From the IMG/VR virus record IMGVR_UViG_2706794689_000009: a stretch of DNA of 39,305 nucleotides, one strand, 5' to 3'. Below, in pieces: positions 1,717 through 39,305 of this stretch. The stretch's first letter is position 1. Each line of letters opens with the position of its first letter. This stretch comes from a virus (taxonomy: Duplodnaviria; Heunggongvirae; Uroviricota; Caudoviricetes). The notes beneath the pieces were generated by a model. It saw only the letters and a program-made list of their open reading frames with translations, was not told the DNA's origin and ran no database searches. The translations under genes and the position numbers were made by a program.

Positions 1717-3804
1717 ATGTTTGCTTCAGTTAAAGAACTGGTTGGATTACCGGGGATGCCGGGAACGGAGCAAGGCGTTCGCTATTCAATCAGGAAGTAT
1801 GCAACCAGCGAAACCAGCAGACGCCGCAAGAAAGGCGCTAAAGGTTTTGAATACAGCATTGACTGTTTACCTGAAGTGACACAGCAGGCATTACGCGAAC
1901 GTTATGCCCTGCAACTGATGACGCAAAAAGCCGATGAATCACCGGCTCCGGTGGTGACAAAGGCCAGACGCTCGTCTGCCGTGGTTGATGCGGTGGAGGC
2001 ATATCGCGGATCACCACAACTGATGGTCGAACGCCTCAATGCCCTGACTGAAAACCAGCGCCAGGTGGCAGACGCACGCATTGCGATCGTCAGTGAGGTG
2101 CTGAAATTCACGCAACAACCCGGTTTCAGCTGCGCTAAAGCTATCCGGTTCCTCGTTAACAGCCTGGCACGATCACAACTGGACGAGCGCATTGTGGCAA
2201 TGGTTGAGACGGCGAACGCCAAAAAGGGAAACAGCCGCGCGTTGAGTGAAATCACGCTGAAACGCTGGATTGCGGCCTTTAACAAGGCACAGAACGCCGC
2301 TGAACGCCTGCTTTTACTGGCACCGGGTAAACGCCAGGAAATAAAAGCCGAAGATATTAACTGGCTGCCCGAATTTCTGGCGCAGTATCGCCAGTCAAAC
2401 GGCCGACCAATGACCGAGGCTTACGAGGATTTTGTTGCTGAATGGCAGCACCGGCACGCTGATGAGCCTTATATGCTCGATATCATGCCCTCTTATGACA
2501 CCATTCGCCGCGCAATGAAGAAACTGCCGGAAGTGGTGAAACAAAAAGGCCGGGTAACTGGCAGTGAATACCGTCAGCTTGAGGGATTCACGCGCCGCGA
2601 CTGGTCCAGAATGCCGGTGAATTATGTCTGGATTGGTGACGGTCACGGCATGAAGCTGAAATGCGCGCACCCGGTTCACGGGCGGCCATTCGCACCGGAA
2701 GTGACCTTTGTTATCGACGGTGGCACGCGCTTTGTGGTGGGCTGGAGCCTTGACCTGGCTGAAAATGTTTTCGCCGTAGCCGGTGCCATACAGCACGGTA
2801 TTCGCCATCATGGCAAACCGTTTCTGTATTACTCGGATAATGGCTCCGGGGAAACCGCCGACGTCCTGGATAAGGAGATTGTGGGGATACTGCCACGACT
2901 GGGGATTAATCACCCGACAGGGATTGCCGGTAATCCGCAGGGACGGGGCATTATCGAACGGCTTAACCGCACATTACCGATGCGCATAGCCCGTAAATAC
3001 CGCACCTATTTCGGGAAAGGAGCAGATCGCGAGACGTTACGTAAAACCAACCGCGATTTACGCTCGGCATTCAGTGCCCTGCAACAGGGCAAACGGCTGA
3101 ACGCCCGGCAGCAGTCAGCGATGCGTGATTTACCGTCCTGGTCTGAACTGATTGATGCCATTCGTGACGGTGTTGAGTGGTACAACAACCGGCCGCACGA
3201 TGAATTACCCATGAAGCCGAACGGTAAACATTACAGCCCGGCGGAGTTCAGAAAAAAACGCCTGGCGGAAGAGGACACGGAAATTGAATGGCTGTCCGAT
3301 GTTGAACTGCGGGATATGTTCCGGCCGATGGTGGAGCGCCCTGTAAGACGCTGTGAAATACGCTGGCTGAATAATATTTACTACGCGCCCGAGCTGCGTG
3401 ACGAGCATGGCCGTAAGGTACTTATCAGCTATGACATTCATGATGCCGAACGAATTACCGTGCGCCGCCCGGATGGCAGCGTGATTTGCGAGGCGGTATG
3501 GGACGGCAATAAACGCGAAGCCTTCCCTGTCAGCGCGGAATACTACAAACAGCAGCAGCGCCTTAAAGGCATGCGTAAACGCGCAGAGGAAAAAATCCGT
3601 GATGCCGAGGATGAGGTTGTCAACGTGCTGGAGCACAAGCCGCAGGAGCCCTGGCTGGAAAACATATACCGCCCTGTGGGTAATACGGTGACCGTTCAGC
3701 AACCGGTCGCTGACGATGAACCTGATGAAGAATACGAGCGTAATTTCCAGCGGGGATTGCAACTGCTCGAAGCGAAATTAAAAGAAAGTGATCCGCTGGC
3801 CTGA
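1717..3804 (+). CDS. A: Mu-type DDE transposase A (MuA)
   Basis: 695-aa ORF with N-terminal DNA-binding region and central integrase-like core (VWIGDGHGMKLK...SDNGSGETADV). Position after ner. Confidence 0.93.
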   Translation: MFASVKELVGLPGMPGTEQGVRYSIRKYATSETSRRRKKGAKGFEYSIDCLPEVTQQALRERYALQLMTQKADESPAPVVTKARRSSAVVDAVEAYRGSPQLMVERLNALTENQRQVADARIAIVSEVLKFTQQPGFSCAKAIRFLVNSLARSQLDERIVAMVETANAKKGNSRALSEITLKRWIAAFNKAQNAAERLLLLAPGKRQEIKAEDINWLPEFLAQYRQSNGRPMTEAYEDFVAEWQHRHADEPYMLDIMPSYDTIRRAMKKLPEVVKQKGRVTGSEYRQLEGFTRRDWSRMPVNYVWIGDGHGMKLKCAHPVHGRPFAPEVTFVIDGGTRFVVGWSLDLAENVFAVAGAIQHGIRHHGKPFLYYSDNGSGETADVLDKEIVGILPRLGINHPTGIAGNPQGRGIIERLNRTLPMRIARKYRTYFGKGADRETLRKTNRDLRSAFSALQQGKRLNARQQSAMRDLPSWSELIDAIRDGVEWYNNRPHDELPMKPNGKHYSPAEFRKKRLAEEDTEIEWLSDVELRDMFRPMVERPVRRCEIRWLNNIYYAPELRDEHGRKVLISYDIHDAERITVRRPDGSVICEAVWDGNKREAFPVSAEYYKQQQRLKGMRKRAEEKIRDAEDEVVNVLEHKPQEPWLENIYRPVGNTVTVQQPVADDEPDEEYERNFQRGLQLLEAKLKESDPLA

Positions 3805-9495: not shown

Positions 9496-10018
9496 ATGAA
9501 TCGCGCTTCCCTGATTACCTTAATACATGTCGCAAAACGCGATCTACAGCTTGACCATGATACCTATACATCCGCGCTGCTGGCAGCCACCGGCAAATCC
9601 AGTTGCCGTGATATGTCACCCGGTGAGTTATCCCGCGTGCTGGATGTTTTCAAAAAACGCGGTTTTAAAGTGCGTCAGANNNNNNNNNNNNNNNNNNNNN
9701 NNNNNNNNNNNNNNNNNNNNNNNNNNNNNNNNNNNNNNNNNNNNNNNNNNNNNNNNNNNNNNNNNNNNNNNNNNNNNNNNNNNNNNNNNNNNNNNNNNNN
9801 NNNNNNNNNNNNNNNNNNNNNNNNNNNNNNNNNNNNNNNNNNNNNNNNNNNNNNNNNNNNNNNNNNNNNNNNNNNNNNNNNNNNNNNNNNNNNNNNNNNN
9901 NNNNNNNNNNNNNNNNNNNNNNNNNNNNNNNNTGCTGGCAGCCCTGGATATGTCGGAACGTGCAGTGATGAGTTATGAGCGTGTTTGCAGGCTGTATGAA
10001 AAATCATTCCCCCGTTAA
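9496..10018 (+). CDS. gemA: GemA-like early regulatory protein, interrupted by N-mask 9680-9932
   Basis: N-terminus MNRASLITLIHVAKRDLQLDHDTYTSALL...LSRVLDVFKKRGF fits the Mu gp16/GemA family. A C-terminal piece after the mask ends at 10018. Frame continuity across the mask cannot be verified. Confidence 0.55.
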
Positions 10019-10088: not shown

Positions 10089-10337
10089 ATGGCTGAAACA
10101 CAGATGAGCATGTTTGGTGACAGCGAACAGCTGCACGCGCTGATTGACCGTCTGGATGATATTCCTGATGATGAGCTGAAAAAGAACTGGCCCGGCACGC
10201 TGCGGGACCTGGTTGATGTGATCAGTGCTGAACTGCACCGTCAGGGGATTGAACCTGCTCAGGCGGGAATGCTTGCCCGTAAGGTTGCAGCCGCACAGGC
10301 CGGGTACATGGGCGGGCGTGGTTATTATCTCCCGGTC
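10089..10337 (+). CDS. mor: Mor-like middle operon regulator (3' end inside N-mask)
   Basis: MAETQMSMFGDSEQLHALIDRLDDIPDDELKKNWPGTLRDLVDVISAELHRQGIEPAQAGMLARKVAAAQAGYMGGRGYYLP parallels the Mu Mor N-terminal and dimerisation region. The C-terminal HTH would fall in the masked bases. Confidence 0.7.
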
Positions 10338-10597
10338 NNNNNNNNNNNNNNNNNNNNNNNNNNNNNNNNNNNNNNNNNNNNNNNNNNNNNNNNNNNNNNN
10401 NNNNNNNNNNNNNNNNNNNNNNNNNNNNNNNNNNNNNNNNNNNNNNNNNNNNNNNNNNNNNNNNNNNNNNNNNNNNNNNNNNNNNNNNNNNNNNNNNNNN
10501 NNNNNNNNNNNNNNNNNNNNNNNNNNNNNNNNNNNNNNNNNNNNNNNNNNNNNNNNNNNNNNNNNNNNNNNNNNNNNNNNNNNNNNNNNNNNNNNNN

Positions 10598-33471: not shown

Positions 33472-33736
33472 ATNNNNNNNNNNNNNNNNNNNNNNNNNNN
33501 NNNNNNNNNNNNNNNNNNNNNNNNNNNNNNNNNNNNNNNNNNNNNNNNNNNNNNNNNNNNNNNNNNNNNNNNNNNNNNNNNNNNNNNNNNNNNNNNNNNN
33601 NNNNNNNNNNNNNNNNNNNNNNNNNNNNNNNNNNNNNNNNNNNNNNNNNNNNNNNNNNNNNNNNNNNNNNNNNNNNNNNNNNNNNNNNNNNNNNNNNNNN
33701 NNNNNNNNNNNNNNNNNNNNNNNNNNNNNNNNNNNN

Positions 33737-33840: not shown

Positions 33841-34090
33841 NNNNNNNNNNNNNNNNNNNNNNNNNNNNNNNNNNNNNNNNNNNNNNNNNNNNNNNNNNNN
33901 NNNNNNNNNNNNNNNNNNNNNNNNNNNNNNNNNNNNNNNNNNNNNNNNNNNNNNNNNNNNNNNNNNNNNNNNNNNNNNNNNNNNNNNNNNNNNNNNNNNN
34001 NNNNNNNNNNNNNNNNNNNNNNNNNNNNNNNNNNNNNNNNNNNNNNNNNNNNNNNNNNNNNNNNNNNNNNNNNNNNNNNNNNNNNNNNNN

Positions 34091-34705: not shown

Positions 34706-36760
34706 ATGTCAGACTCCAAGTGGAAAATGCTCTCCGCCATGCCCGGAGAGTTTTCAGTCAAGGTTGCCGGTGGCACGGTGGCATTTATTGAAAGCCCTTT
34801 CCGCCCTTCGGGTAATAAAGGGGGGATCACCTTCGCAGACTGCGTGATCCGCTTCAGCACGAAAGAGCCATTATGGGTAATGCCGGTATCCGGTAATCCC
34901 AGTGCAGAAATCACCAGTTCAGGCGTGACTGGCATCATTCCAATCACATCTGACGTGGCCGGAACGCTCACGCCCTCCGACTGGAATGCACCGGATAACG
35001 CCGGGCCTTCCGGTAGCACGAATGGCAGCAGTTCAGAGCCGGAATATTACTTTGTTGTCATTCTCGCGGGTCAGTCAAATGGCATGGCCTACGGCGAGGG
35101 GCTGCCGTTACCGGATTCGTTTGACCGCCCGGACCCACGCATTAAGCAACTGGCACGCCGCAGTACGGTAACGCCCAACGGTACGTCGTGTACATACAAC
35201 GACATCATTCCGGCAGACCACTGCCTGCATGATGTTCAGGATATGAGCGGGATAAACCACCCGAAAGCTGATCTGGCAAAAGGCCAGTACGGGACTGTCG
35301 GTCAGGGGTTGCATATTGCCAAAAAACTGCTTCCCTATATCCCACAGAATGCCGGGATACTTCTGGTGCCCTGTTGTCGTGGCGGGTCAGCATTCACCAC
35401 TGGAGCCGACGGCTCATTCAGTGAGGCCAGCGGTGCTTCCGCTGATTCTTCACGCTGGGGGGCCGGTAAACCTCTGTATCAGGACCTGGTAAGCCGCACC
35501 AAAGTCGCGCTGGCGAAAAACCCGAAAAACAAACTTCTGGCTGTGGTCTGGATGCAGGGAGAGGCAGACCTTGCCTCAGGAAGCCAGCAGCATAATAGTT
35601 TATTCACGGCCATGGTTCAGCAGTTCAGAACTGACCTGGCTCCGCTTGCTGCGCAGTGCGTGAGTGGAAATGCCACCACGGTGCCGTGGATTTGCGGTGA
35701 TACCACGTATTACTGGAAAAACGCTGGCACCGATAAATATGAGGCAGTATACGGTGGCTACAAAGGCAAGGAAGCACAGAAAATTTTCTTTGTACCGTTC
35801 CTGACGGATGAGAATGGACAGAGCACGCCAACGAATGCTCCGGCGGAAGACCCGGATATTGTGGCTGTCGGGTATTACGGTGCAGCATCCCGAACCCAGG
35901 GCAGTTTTGTTTCGACACAGCGTGACAGCCATTTCAGCTCATGGGCACGCAGGGGCGTCATTTCAGACCGTCTGGCCTCAGCTATTATGCTCCATGCAGG
36001 GCGCACGGCTGAACTGATGCGTGGGCAGACCGTGACACCACCGGATGAGAAGCCGTCACCTGATACACCATCAAAACCGTCCACGCCACCCGCAGACACC
36101 ACGACGATGAGTACGCTATTTGCTTACCGGGCATCTGAGTCTGAAGGACGGTTGACACCACAGGGTTGGGCTGCCGGAGGTGGCAAGGCTCAAATCGTGG
36201 ATGATGCCGGAGCCAGCGGGGGTAAGGCAATGAAACTGACCAAGGAAACAGGAAGAGCCCCCTGGTACCTTGAGCATGATGCTGGTAATGGTGCGGACCT
36301 GCTGGGTAAAGGTGGTCTTGTCAGTTGTCGTTTTAAACTCGATGGCGCGCTTACGGCTAATCAGTACGCACTGGCGCTGTACTGGCCGGTTTCTGCCCTG
36401 CCGCAAGGGGTTACTCTGGAAGGAAATGCCGGTCATAACCTGCTGGCATCGTTCTACGTACAGAGCGATGCCACAGACCTTAACGTGATGTATCACAAAG
36501 GAAACACGGCGCAGAACACGAAGCTGGGGTCATTCGGCGCATTTAATAACGAATGGCATACGCTGGGCTTCCGTTTTGCCGGTAACAACAGTATTGAGGT
36601 GACGCCGGTCATTGATGGTAAGGACGGGACACCATTCATGCTGTCGCAGTCTCCGGTCGGCACGTTTACGGCAGACAAGTTGCGCGTGACCGATATCACT
36701 AAAAATGCGACTTACCCGGTACTGATTGACAGTATCGTGGTGGAAGTGAATAACGCGTAA
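34706..36760 (+). CDS. Putative SGNH/SASA-family esterase (sialate O-acetylesterase-like) with Pro/Thr/Ser linker and C-terminal beta-rich domain
   Basis: 684 aa. Motif VVILAGQSNGMAYGEG (GQSN block of the SASA/SGNH fold), linker PPDEKPSPDTPSKPSTPPADTTT, then a roughly 220-aa C-terminal domain. Not part of the Mu backbone. Confidence 0.55.
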   Translation: MSDSKWKMLSAMPGEFSVKVAGGTVAFIESPFRPSGNKGGITFADCVIRFSTKEPLWVMPVSGNPSAEITSSGVTGIIPITSDVAGTLTPSDWNAPDNAGPSGSTNGSSSEPEYYFVVILAGQSNGMAYGEGLPLPDSFDRPDPRIKQLARRSTVTPNGTSCTYNDIIPADHCLHDVQDMSGINHPKADLAKGQYGTVGQGLHIAKKLLPYIPQNAGILLVPCCRGGSAFTTGADGSFSEASGASADSSRWGAGKPLYQDLVSRTKVALAKNPKNKLLAVVWMQGEADLASGSQQHNSLFTAMVQQFRTDLAPLAAQCVSGNATTVPWICGDTTYYWKNAGTDKYEAVYGGYKGKEAQKIFFVPFLTDENGQSTPTNAPAEDPDIVAVGYYGAASRTQGSFVSTQRDSHFSSWARRGVISDRLASAIMLHAGRTAELMRGQTVTPPDEKPSPDTPSKPSTPPADTTTMSTLFAYRASESEGRLTPQGWAAGGGKAQIVDDAGASGGKAMKLTKETGRAPWYLEHDAGNGADLLGKGGLVSCRFKLDGALTANQYALALYWPVSALPQGVTLEGNAGHNLLASFYVQSDATDLNVMYHKGNTAQNTKLGSFGAFNNEWHTLGFRFAGNNSIEVTPVIDGKDGTPFMLSQSPVGTFTADKLRVTDITKNATYPVLIDSIVVEVNNA

Positions 36761-37385: not shown

Positions 37386-37463
37386 ACCGGTGGTGTCCTC
37401 TGCCGGTTTGACACTAATGAAAACATCTTTGCCGCTATCCAGCCATATGTAATCGCTGGATAG
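37386..37463. terminator. Two hairpins between convergent genes (AAACCGG...CCGGTTT, and 9-bp inverted repeat CTATCCAGC...GCTGGATAG)
   Basis: Inverted repeats directly visible between the 37123-37377 plus-strand gene and the 37545-37838 minus-strand gene. Confidence 0.35.
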
Positions 37464-37544
37464 TATTTCGTATTCAGAAATATAGCTGCTTATGGAGCAG
37501 TCAATCCTGCTTCCCCATCCGGGCAGGCAAATGAACCGGTATCA

Positions 37545-37838
37545 TTAGTCCGATTCACGCTTTTGTAGAATCGTTCCCAGAATGCTATACAGCTCATTAG
37601 CCTGTTGCTCCATCATTGAGACGGAGGCTATACGGTGCAAAGTGATTTCAGGAGGTGGCACACCTCCATCTTCTTGCTGTGGAGGAAAAACATAAGATTT
37701 AATAAAAAAGTTGAAGCATATGAACTCTCCCGCACTCGAACTGTATTTGCAGGCATCTGAATAATCGGAAAAATAATCATTATAGATTTCCGCATTTTCA
37801 ATCATTTTTCGATTTCTCGTCGTTACATGATTGTCCAT
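37545..37838 (-). CDS. Hypothetical AT-rich protein, divergent from com-mom
   Basis: 97-aa ORF with markedly lower GC than the phage backbone. Its start faces the GATC-containing mom control region. Confidence 0.45.
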   Translation of the reverse strand: MDNHVTTRNRKMIENAEIYNDYFSDYSDACKYSSSAGEFICFNFFIKSYVFPPQQEDGGVPPPEITLHRIASVSMMEQQANELYSILGTILQKRESD

Positions 37839-37961
37839 AGCAGCCTCTTACGCTGGCAATTAACCAATTGACTTCTATAAATTAGTTGATTTGTTTGCTT
37901 TGCGGTATTCAAATGTACAATCATTCAGCACTTATGCGTTACAGCACCGTTTAAAATTAGT

Positions 37962-38047
37962 GATCAAACTCATAAATTTTCGCTAATGACATTTCGTGTT
38001 ATTTGTTGTATCAATTAAATAAATCAAATCGATCGTTTTTGTCGATC
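37962..38047 (+). promoter_or_regulatory. mom upstream control region with three GATC (Dam) sites at about 37962, 38031 and 38044
   Basis: AT-rich intergenic region immediately upstream of com with GATC sites clustered, including the palindromic GTCGATCGAT. In Mu, the mom promoter is controlled by Dam methylation of three upstream GATC sites (OxyR binding). Confidence 0.45.
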
Positions 38048-38094
38048 GATTGAGTGATAAAGATATCAACAACAAAGCAGGAGGTTATGCGGCC

Positions 38095-38295
38095 ATGTAT
38101 CGAAACATACGGTGCCGACATTGTAACAAGCTACTGGCACGAGCCAGCTTCAGTTATCTGGAAGTTAAATGTCCGCGCTGTAAAACCCTCAATCAAATCA
38201 CATCTCAGAGCGCCACAGAGCACCCCACATACACAAGGAAATCCTGTCGTGGGGAACAGAAAGCAAGTTACATCCCGTATCATCAGCACGCCTGA
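38095..38295 (+). CDS. com: Com zinc-finger translational activator of mom
   Basis: From ATG 38095 (AGGAGG 10 nt upstream): [35 protein letters not shown]...EHPT, co-linear with Mu Com including the CxxC-(16)-CxxC zinc finger. Confidence 0.8.
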
Positions 38296-38986
38296 ACTTA
38301 TTCACTATAACGACAATATCGTCGGTTATGGCTCCCGTGAGTTACGGGTTGAGACAATAAGTTGCTGGCTGGCCCGGCTGGTCGTCGTCAATAAACATTA
38401 CAGCCATCGTTTCGTAAATAATTCCTACCTTCATCTGGGCATATTTTCAGAACGGGAGCTGGTTGGCGTAATGCAATGGGGTTATGCCCTTAATCCAAAC
38501 AATGGTGCACGCGTCGTAACTGGCACGCAGAACCGCGAATATATGGAGCTTAACCGGTTATGGCTGCATGACTGTATGCCGAGAAACTCCGAATCAAGGG
38601 CAATCAGTTACGCGCTCAAACTAATCAGACAACTTTATCCGCAGGTGCAGTGGGTTCAGTCGTTTGCAGATGAGCGTTGTGGCTGTCTTGGTGTCGTGTA
38701 CCAGGCAAGCAATTTTGATTATGTAGGCAGTCATGAAACAACATTCTATGAACTTGATGGCGAGTGGTATCACGAGATTTGCAAGAATGCAATCAAACGA
38801 GGAGGACAGCGAGGTGAACATCTGCGGGCTAATATCGACAGAGCCAGTGTTCATAAATTCCGTCAGTTTCGTTACATCCGGTTTCTGGACAAGAGAGCCA
38901 GAAAACGCCTTAACACAAAGCTATTCAAAGTCCAGCCTTACCCAAAACCACAAACAGTTAAAACTGGTTTGAAAGAGAGTGAATGA
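38249..38986 (+). CDS. mom: Mom-like DNA modification protein (start inferred as GTG 38249)
   Basis: Long frame overlapping the 3' end of com as in Mu; about 245 aa from GTG 38249. An AAGGAA ribosome-binding site and the GTG lie inside a stem CCCCAC...GTGGGG (about 38223-38254), resembling the Mu mom translation-inhibition structure that Com opens. No sequence-level identification of Mom was possible. Confidence 0.6.
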
Positions 38987-39030
38987 ACGCTTAAAAACTC
39001 ATTCTAAAACTCAAAAGAAAAGCGCCGATT

Positions 39031-39100
39031 TAGTATCAAATAAGTTGCGTATCGGCGTTTTTCAGCGGTATCAAATGAAATGCAAATCGGTATCAAAAAA
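39031..39100 (-). repeat. Right-end transposase-binding repeats, three copies of the reverse-complement motif (about 39031-39042, 39066-39077, 39088-39100)
   Basis: TAGTATCAAATA, CGGTATCAAATG, CGGTATCAAAAA are inverted relative to the left-end CATTTGATACCG copies. Confidence 0.6.
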
Positions 39101-39217
39101 ATCGCCGCGCTATAGACAGCCTAAGCGGCTGCTGACCTCCCTGACCATGCTGTAAATCTCTTTATCCTGGTTGTCACAGAATAAGCCCGGTAAAATACGG
39201 GCTTATGAACGACATCT

Positions 39218-39305
39218 CTTCTGACGACATCTTCCTGCTGAAACAGCGCCTTGCCGAACGTCAGTTGAAAACGAAACCGCTGCTGAAATCCCTGGAAAGC
39301 TGGCT
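39218..39305 (+). CDS. Probable IS66-family transposase TnpC, 5' fragment continuing beyond the window
   Basis: ATG 39218 preceded by a 7-bp hairpin. Translation MNDISSDDIFLLKQRLAERQLKTKPLLKSLESW is open to the window edge. Assignment rests mainly on the IS66 tnpA/tnpB at the other side of the prophage. Confidence 0.4.

Follow-up and report, generated by a model that had tools for sequence, protein, structure and literature searches.

The window analyzed here, i.e., the whole stretch of 39,305 nt, corresponds to an entire Mu-like transposable prophage. Pfam matches to Mu-transpos_C and HTH_Tnp_Mu_1 mark its Mu-type transposase gene at 1717-3804, and repeats lie toward both ends, with three copies of TTTGATAC close to the left end and three copies of GTATCAAA, in inverted orientation, close to the right end. 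The insertion site was the orf2 gene of an IS66-family element, as recognized by a Pfam TnpB_IS66 match for 196-519 and by inspection of the junctions. [quoted passage not shown] The features of this locus are compiled in Table 1. Everything that the sequence-only reading had pointed out was found at the positions it gave, and its interpretation is supported, for the Dam sites in part. The genes share 47 nt, from the mom start at 38249 to the com stop at 38295, whereas the overlap in Mu is 50 nt; in addition, no gin gene lies directly upstream, unlike in Mu. We consider it very likely that, in the region 37962-38986, this Mu-like (Sp18-type) transposable prophage of E. coli carries its com-mom late operon, and we infer that the name Sp18 belongs to exactly this prophage.

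Two further elements of the prophage bear on this operon. The Mor/C-family protein listed in Table 1 is likely the trans-activator of the com-mom promoter, and in L002 the equivalent place carries the RefSeq label 'Mor transcription activator family protein'. Past the mom stop, the terminator-like hairpin folded with -21.6 kcal/mol (z -5.06), a value equaled or bettered by 1 of 200 shuffles, and its loop contains the first right-end GTATCAAA repeat. An Rfam scan of 37400-39305 (E <= 1) returned only a chance IS102 match that scored 21 bits, below the gathering score of 46, and no curated family covered the Com site or the inhibition hairpin in that interval.

Table 1. Features of the com-mom locus and its putative activator gene, with positions counted along the window
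Feature	Position	Strand	Basis
Mor/C-family late transcription activator, N-terminal part; remainder masked by N	10089..10337	+	Pfam PF08765 Mor, E 5.2e-10
Third GATC named earlier	37962..37965	.	69 nt upstream of next GATC
Perfect inverted repeat AATCGATCG-N7-CGATCGATT, candidate Dam-sensitive operator, resembles OxyR dimer half-site	38027..38051	.	Sequence, GATC positions
AAAGAT, best candidate -10 element	38059..38064	+	Proposed by analogy to Mu TAAGAT
com, predicted 66-aa CCCC zinc-ribbon translational activator	38095..38295	+	Pfam PF10122, Mu Com identity, same CDS in RefSeq
Putative Com-binding site GAGcgCCacaGAGcaCC, hairpin 38210-38223	38208..38224	+	Motif match, compensatory changes
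Translation-inhibition hairpin, outer stem CCCCAC/GUGGGG with GUG start	38223..38254	+	Folds, 12-operon alignment
mom, predicted 245-aa GNAT-fold adenine N6 modification enzyme, Gly-tRNA(Gly)-dependent	38249..38986	+	PF25680, Mu Mom, 8BV8
Intrinsic-terminator-like hairpin, 13-bp stem then U run, 30 nt past mom stop	39017..39063	+	Fold

The Com and Mom proteins

The com gene runs from an ATG at 38095 to a stop at 38295 and has its own ribosome-binding site, GGAGG, at 38080-38084. Its product matched Pfam PF10122 with an E value of 7.5e-13 and 48.2 bits (cut-off 22.9), showed 45% identity to Mu Com, and contains the four zinc-binding cysteines, C7, C10, C26, and C29, which are the counterparts of Cys 6, 9, 26, and 29 of the Mu protein (PMC3299994). 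The sequence-only reading had called Com clearly recognizable, and these matches bear it out. A PDB sequence search with Com found nothing, and an NCBIfam search with the Com and Mom proteins gave no match for either.

For mom, which extends from the GTG at 38249-38251 to a stop at 38986, similarity of the 245-aa product to the Mom family had been set beforehand as the test of the assignment. The protein aligned with Pfam PF25680 over profile positions 1-202 of 202, with an E value of 7.8e-78 and 261 bits (cut-off 27.1), showed 78% identity with Mu Mom in a gap-free alignment of 229 aa, and matched the solved Mom structure, PDB 8BV8, with an E value of 2.4e-123. Relative to Mu Mom, the protein has an additional 12 residues at the C-terminus. 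The Mu enzyme has a GNAT fold and uses Gly-tRNA(Gly) as the donor of a glycine that it attaches to adenine N6 in double-stranded DNA, after which the adduct undergoes a rearrangement on the base (PMC13219725, 2026). Residues R111, S124, and R151 of Mu Mom are essential, and H58, Y59, W48, D149, Y159, W181, and the 175-209 insertion are important (PMC13219725). All nine single residues are identical in the protein under study, where W48, H58, Y59, R111, S124, D149, R151, Y159, and W181 of Mu correspond to W40, H50, Y51, R103, S116, D141, R143, Y151, and W173, respectively. The helix-turn-helix-like insertion of Mu residues 175-209, needed for activity in Mu Mom (PMC13219725), is also present and gap-free, with 27 of 35 residues identical. 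Moreover, the GTG at 38249 aligns with the Mu mom GTG, and the RefSeq entry WP_000528246.1 starts at the same codon; judged from the alignment, this GTG is the homologue of the Mu mom GUG start.

GATC sites and the promoter region

In Mu, Dam-methylated GATC sites upstream of the mom promoter keep the repressor OxyR off the DNA. Three GATC upstream of com had been read here as a Dam-site cluster, and the claim stood in part. All three are present, and the two at 38031-38034 and 38044-38047, which lie 13 nt apart within the perfect inverted repeat 38027-38051, were found in every relative of this lineage; by sequence comparison, they correspond to Mu sites 2 and 3. The GATC at 37962, on the other hand, is absent from 97%-identical relatives, e.g., L031 and L035, and is probably a chance occurrence outside the control region, and the position of the conserved pair relative to com is unlike that in Mu. 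The spacing of 13 nt was found in 29 of 32 non-redundant com upstream regions with at least two GATC, Mu included, and both the GATC and this exact spacing were kept despite diverged flanks (L004, L047-L049, and Mu). The counts along the window showed no enrichment, with 118 GATC observed versus 136 expected; three GATC per 100 nt occurred at 80 window positions, and there were ten close GATC pairs. On these counts, we rejected the idea that a cluster of three sites is statistically unusual, and it is conservation that speaks for the pair.

A promoter scan detected no sigma-70 consensus promoter on the plus strand upstream of com, as expected of an activator-dependent promoter, and we therefore infer the start site of com-mom transcription. 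The best candidate for a -10 element, AAAGAT, ends 31 nt 5' of the com ATG, and its Mu equivalent, TAAGAT, ends 29 nt 5' of the com ATG of that phage; the hexamer is not kept in all close relatives. The distance from the last GATC to the com ATG is 51 nt versus 75-77 nt in Mu, and the distance from the last GATC to the candidate -10 element is 11-14 nt. With the pair about 25 nt nearer com, there is no room for a Mu-type C site before the -10 element, and no similarity to the Mu C-binding sequence (TTAT-N6-ATAA region) was found between the GATCs and the candidate -10. Mu and this prophage have in common two GATC 13 nt apart upstream, a Mor/C-family activator, and, by analogy here, a weak promoter, whereas GATC site 1 and the C-binding sequence of Mu have no counterpart. 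Taking the Mu promoter as a guide, the pair would probably straddle the -35 region or overlap the core promoter.

The match to the binding sequence of OxyR was weak, with 10 of 16 positions of the four-element consensus at 38010-38046 (11 of 16 for Mu's own site) and a half-site score of 7/10, in a window where scores of 7-8/10 occur 63 times. This weakness leaves space for a different function of the repeat, as an operator for the phage's Mor/C-type activator or another repressor, or as a bidirectional terminator acting against antisense read-through, in which case the GATCs would be incidental to the palindrome. Its two 9-bp arms form a perfect palindrome pair, flagged by the scan as terminator-like on the minus strand, and by analogy the repeat would cover about -45 to -21 of the presumed promoter, the part bound in Mu by the activator C. 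Nevertheless, no second copy was found in the window with up to 3 mismatches allowed, nor any in the lys upstream region of L002, so that the repeat does not qualify as a general late-promoter element, and upstream no minus-strand gene is present for it to terminate. The preservation of the GATC and of their 13-nt spacing, while the flanks diverge, also argues against incidental sites, and the GATC pairs within the OxyR half-sites of P22 gtr have the same spacing. We hold these other functions to be rather unlikely, and Dam/OxyR control of com-mom transcription to be plausible.

The GATC pair also invites a comparison with phase-variable genes. In P22 gtr, GATC pairs sit 13 nt apart in the OxyR half-sites, and methylation blocks OxyR binding (PMC2909390). 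With the Dam/OxyR switches of agn43 and P22 gtr the prophage shares paired GATC 13 nt apart, which sit here in a sequence that resembles an OxyR dimer half-site (ATCG-N7-CGAT, compared with ATAG-N7-CTAT); furthermore, the last GATC lies around 30 nt 5' of the presumed transcription start here, and gtr GATC4 is at -33. Unlike in agn43 and gtr, the GATC pair of this locus is the only one, a second or third half-site is not evident, and the OxyR site is a candidate; moreover, mom is a late gene of the lytic phase and not a lysogenic-conversion gene. It is conceivable, though in our estimation improbable, that the pair (at about -41 and -28) has the geometry of the P22 gtr OxyR(C) half-site and not that of a Mu-like upstream repressor site, so that a heritable Dam/OxyR methylation switch could set com-mom transcription, possibly without a Mu-type C site. 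If this were true, Mom would be made in some lysogens or induced cells and not in others.

The hairpins at the com-mom junction

Mu Com binds a short hairpin beside the translation-inhibition structure, whose stem holds the mom GUG (PMC6483171). The motif recognized by Com, as established by SELEX (in vitro selection), is CC(N)2-3GAG, placed in a 6-nt loop that a C-G pair closes and in many cases accompanied by a flanking GAG(N)2CC (PMC6483171). The putative site found here contains the motif CCacaGAG (CC-N3-GAG) in a hairpin with the pairs G38210-C38223, G38212-C38221, and C38213-G38220, a mismatch of C38211 and A38222, and a 6-nt loop, CACAGA, closed by C38213-G38220. The CCCCAC/GUGGGG stem adjoins this hairpin directly 3', with CCCCAC at 38223-38228 paired with GTGGGG at 38249-38254, and the GUG (38249-38251) paired with 38226-38228. 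Mu and the prophage therefore share a GUG start within a CCCAC/GUGGG stem and a CC-N3-GAG hairpin with a 6-nt loop directly 5' of it. The initial analysis had put both the GTG and the AAGGAA Shine-Dalgarno sequence inside a 6-bp stem; this was accurate for the GTG but not for AAGGAA, which lies at 38235-38240, 8 nt 5' of the GTG, within the 20-nt loop. In the fold, an inner helix of 38233-38238 and 38243-38247 pairs both Gs of AAGGAA. The Mu structure differs in having an 11-nt loop and an 8-bp stem, and the pair at the stem base is C-G here and U-A in Mu.

Folding of 38215-38260 gave -12.6 kcal/mol (z -1.8), equaled by 12 of 200 shuffles, and folding of 38205-38258 gave -14.3 kcal/mol (z -2.1), equaled by 6 of 200. 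The stability of the start-codon hairpin by itself is thus not exceptional, and the case for it therefore rests on comparison, i.e., on homology and on covariation in related operons. Mom loci were gathered from genomes and viral contigs for this purpose. The pairing probability of the start codon at 38249 was 1.0, as was the median in 26 distinct com-linked mom genes, compared with a median of 0.4 in 23 mom genes without com. In the distant com-linked operons L005, L008, L009, and L010, the sequences are different, yet the start codon or the Shine-Dalgarno sequence is paired.

For covariation, the com-mom junctions of 12 distinct operons, whose Mom proteins were 73-100% identical, were aligned. 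All four pairs of the Com hairpin showed compensatory two-sided changes. The inhibitory stem was paired in 100% of the operons, and its base pair (alignment columns 32-63) was CG in 7, UA in 4, and UG in 1; four of its six pairs never vary and are uninformative, and the covarying pair represents few independent events. In the alignment, 97% of the cells were paired, compared with 23-61% when the partners were slid, and the covariation score was reached by none of 500 shuffles, a figure to be read with the few independent events in mind. At the stem base, the covarying nucleotides are third codon positions that change synonymously, in a com His codon (CAC/CAU) and in mom codon 2 (GGG/GGA), indicating selection on the RNA. 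Nucleotide 38223 is able to pair in either the Com hairpin or the inhibitory stem and covaries with both partners, which fits a switch, again with few independent events behind it. The proposal that the stem at the GTG is a Mu-like translation-inhibition structure thus gained from both sides, the GTG aligning with the Mu GUG and the stem being kept with covariation; on this sequence comparison, the CCCCAC/GUGGGG hairpin is homologous to the Mu structure.

The arrangement of the genes raises the question of whether ribosomes reading com could melt the stem on their own and so allow initiation at the GUG, by translational coupling with no specific contact between Com and the RNA. The com frame spans both hairpins to 38295, so that the whole inhibitory hairpin is inside the com coding sequence, and the com/mom overlap noted above was kept in all com-linked operons examined. 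This explanation alone demands neither the Com motif nor its hairpin, both of which are kept, the latter with compensatory changes in all of its pairs, and Mu Com binds its hairpin directly (PMC6483171). Coupling as a substitute for Com is, in our view, quite improbable, but coupling may contribute alongside Com. More doubtful still is that the hairpin is a mere by-product of two overlapping coding frames with no regulatory role, as the 6-12 of 200 shuffles that fold as well and the four invariant pairs of six could suggest. The variable positions change synonymously with the pairing kept, the four distant operons named above keep their start codon or Shine-Dalgarno sequence paired in spite of their different sequences, and mom genes without com mostly leave the start codon unpaired; we regard a by-product as very improbable.

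The position of the start codon itself was also reconsidered. The downstream frame had been described as free of ATG for more than 140 codons, and this proved inexact, since the mom frame, open from 38054, already contains an ATG as its codon 12, at 38087, eight bases 5' of the com ATG; the next one follows at 38471, which is codon 140 of that frame and codon 75 from the GTG. The ATG at 38087, just past GGAGG and in a frame open for 65 codons 5' of the GTG, would give a 299-aa Mom with an N-terminal extension from the com region in another frame. We rejected this start, whose probability we deem close to negligible, as neither the ATG nor the long open stretch is conserved: in 96-97%-identical relatives the ATG is missing and the frame closes 27 codons upstream. 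The ATG is most simply incidental, being non-conserved and only 2 nt past GGAGG, and RefSeq uses the GTG. Furthermore, numbering of Mu Mom in PMC13219725 begins at an ATG ten codons 5' of the GUG, and the protein that lost those ten residues was active, so that they are dispensable (PMC13219725).

Proposed control and distribution of the module

By reference to Mu, we propose that a weak promoter just 5' of com would be turned on late in lytic growth, when the Mor/C-family activator is made. It would be active only with both GATC Dam-methylated, methylation excluding a repressor, which is OxyR in Mu. Com would then be translated via its own ribosome-binding site and would bind the loop of the 38210-38223 hairpin, whose nucleotide 38223 is shared with the base of the inhibitory stem. 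This binding is expected to open the stem and make AAGGAA and the GUG accessible to ribosomes. The resulting Mom would transfer glycine from Gly-tRNA(Gly) to the N6 of adenines in the double-stranded phage DNA, the adduct would give N6-carbamoylmethyl-adenine, blocking many restriction enzymes, and the operon would be ended by the terminator at 39017-39063.

Among 5426 complete E. coli genomes, many O157:H7 included, 233 contained the module with 90-100% identity. There, mom is annotated as 'protein mom', 'Mom family adenine methylcarbamoylation protein', or 'tRNA(Gly)-dependent adenine aminoacyltransferase Mom', and Com is annotated too. SP18 has been described as encoding Mom and its regulators (PMC3299994). 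The Sp18-type prophages of E. coli, in O157:H7 and elsewhere in the species, carry the same module at 94-100% DNA identity, with nothing material differing, and the window is one copy of this prophage type. The com-mom operon is accordingly well known, ordinary, and already annotated in public records, and what is new, and mildly so, is confined to two points, a hairpin loop that is larger and has an inner helix, and the shifted GATC pair; the shift relative to the promoter is the one point absent from the literature examined.

The control region was also observed in front of other enzymes. In sibling prophages, an identical com, motif, hairpin, and GTG precede a C5 cytosine methyltransferase (PF00145) or an N6/N4 methyltransferase (PF01555), and in those with a D12-class adenine methyltransferase (PF02086) com and the Com motif are kept with a different start region. 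Com homologues likewise precede DNA methyltransferases, with putative Com sites, in FluMu (hin1523), Pnm1, and B3 (ORF47/48) (PMC3299994). As in this prophage, the com homologue of FluMu hin1523, Pnm1, and B3 ORF47/48 overlaps the 5' end of the DNA-modification gene, but their enzymes are S-adenosylmethionine-dependent methyltransferases, whereas the one here is a predicted GNAT-fold Mom using charged tRNA.

Collectively, this analysis identifies an anti-restriction function for a prophage type present in about 4% of complete E. coli genomes, O157:H7 included, which matters little beyond correct annotation, and it shows that this lineage has kept, with covariation, the Com/hairpin translational switch known from textbooks for Mu, which also stands before swapped DNA-modification enzymes.

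Ends, insertion site and masked stretches of the prophage

The prophage had been inserted into an IS66-family element, in orf2 (the TnpB gene) and close to the 3' end of this gene, and the orf2 reading frame, broken by the prophage, continued from 39115 (...RQPKRLLTSLTML*). A repeat of just four bases, GACA, was seen at both junctions; a clean 5-bp duplication was not seen. The termini were TATA... and ...TATA, in contrast to the TG...CA of Mu. Each end contained an 8-mer in three copies, with the left-end and right-end sets in inverted orientation, and these repeats are probably transposase-binding sites. Four runs of N hid the C-terminal half of a Mor-family gene, the region of the lys promoter and, in part, the tail-fibre/invertase region; in L002, a related prophage locus from E. 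coli DLI.5a, the latter region lay in the opposite orientation to that of the window.

Features of the window and of related loci (L-numbers)
Feature	Location	Strand	Remarks
N runs (n = 4)	9680-9932, 10338-10597, 33474-33736, 33841-34090		~250 N each
Flanking IS66-family element	1-519 and 39115-39305		junctions ~507 and 39114
8-mer TTTGATAC	524, 619, 671		left end, 3 copies
8-mer GTATCAAA	39033, 39068, 39090		right end, 3 copies
684-aa protein	34706-36760	+	SASA carbohydrate-esterase domain, C-terminal DUF6645 domain
97-aa ORF	37545-37838	-	opposite strand to com, immediately upstream
Sibling prophages, enzyme swapped	L102:2596-3802; L130-L140, L141-L175, L177		com junctions ~position 1750 in each of L130-L140, L141-L175, L177
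Mom homologue without com	L003:1440-1530		79% identity; Enterobacteriaceae metagenome-assembled genome
Small hairpin, mom genes without com	L011, L013, L068, L086, L092, L099 and similar		~40 nt 5' of mom

Genes upstream of com

The gene for the 684-aa protein was placed between the invertase region and com and is a possible accessory gene, of tail-spike-like or surface-sugar deacetylase type. The comparison of the 97-aa ORF with Pfam gave no family matches. Only two sigma-70-like promoters were found in the region, at 37859-37830 and 37801-37773, both on the minus strand and ahead of this ORF. The ORF is perhaps an accessory gene that the lysogen expresses.

The com control region in related prophages

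In the sibling prophages, com, the Com motif, the CCCCAC/GUGGGG hairpin and the GTG start were the same as those of the window, the first residues (MGN...) were also retained, and the enzyme was exchanged at a point directly 3' of the start codon. The enzyme found there belonged to the C5 cytosine (PF00145) or the N6/N4 (PF01555) methyltransferases, and in L177, com and the Com motif preceded a D12-class adenine methyltransferase (PF02086), with a start region that differed. The general idea of com ahead of swapped enzymes is known from FluMu and B3 (PMC3299994). RefSeq labels Com in L002, L102 and L103 as a 'Com family DNA-binding transcriptional regulator', whereas in the experimental literature it is a translational activator that binds RNA (PMC6483171). 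The DLI.5a chromosome carried the com-mom module twice, once in L002 (21791-39715) and once at another place, and, when compared with the window, the L002 copy was without most of the head and tail genes.

mom genes without com

Other mom genes without com came from Serratia, Yersinia and Sphingomonas records and from viral contigs, with ~69% identity. Their common small hairpin paired the Shine-Dalgarno sequence, and its arms covaried (GCAC/GUGC versus GUAC/GUAC); no regulator was evident for this group. In the metagenome-assembled genome (L003), the TTG start of mom was located inside a perfect 13-bp hairpin (CUGUUUUCUCAAU ... AUUGAGAAAACAG) despite the absence of com upstream, and this suggests that translation is locked there in another way.
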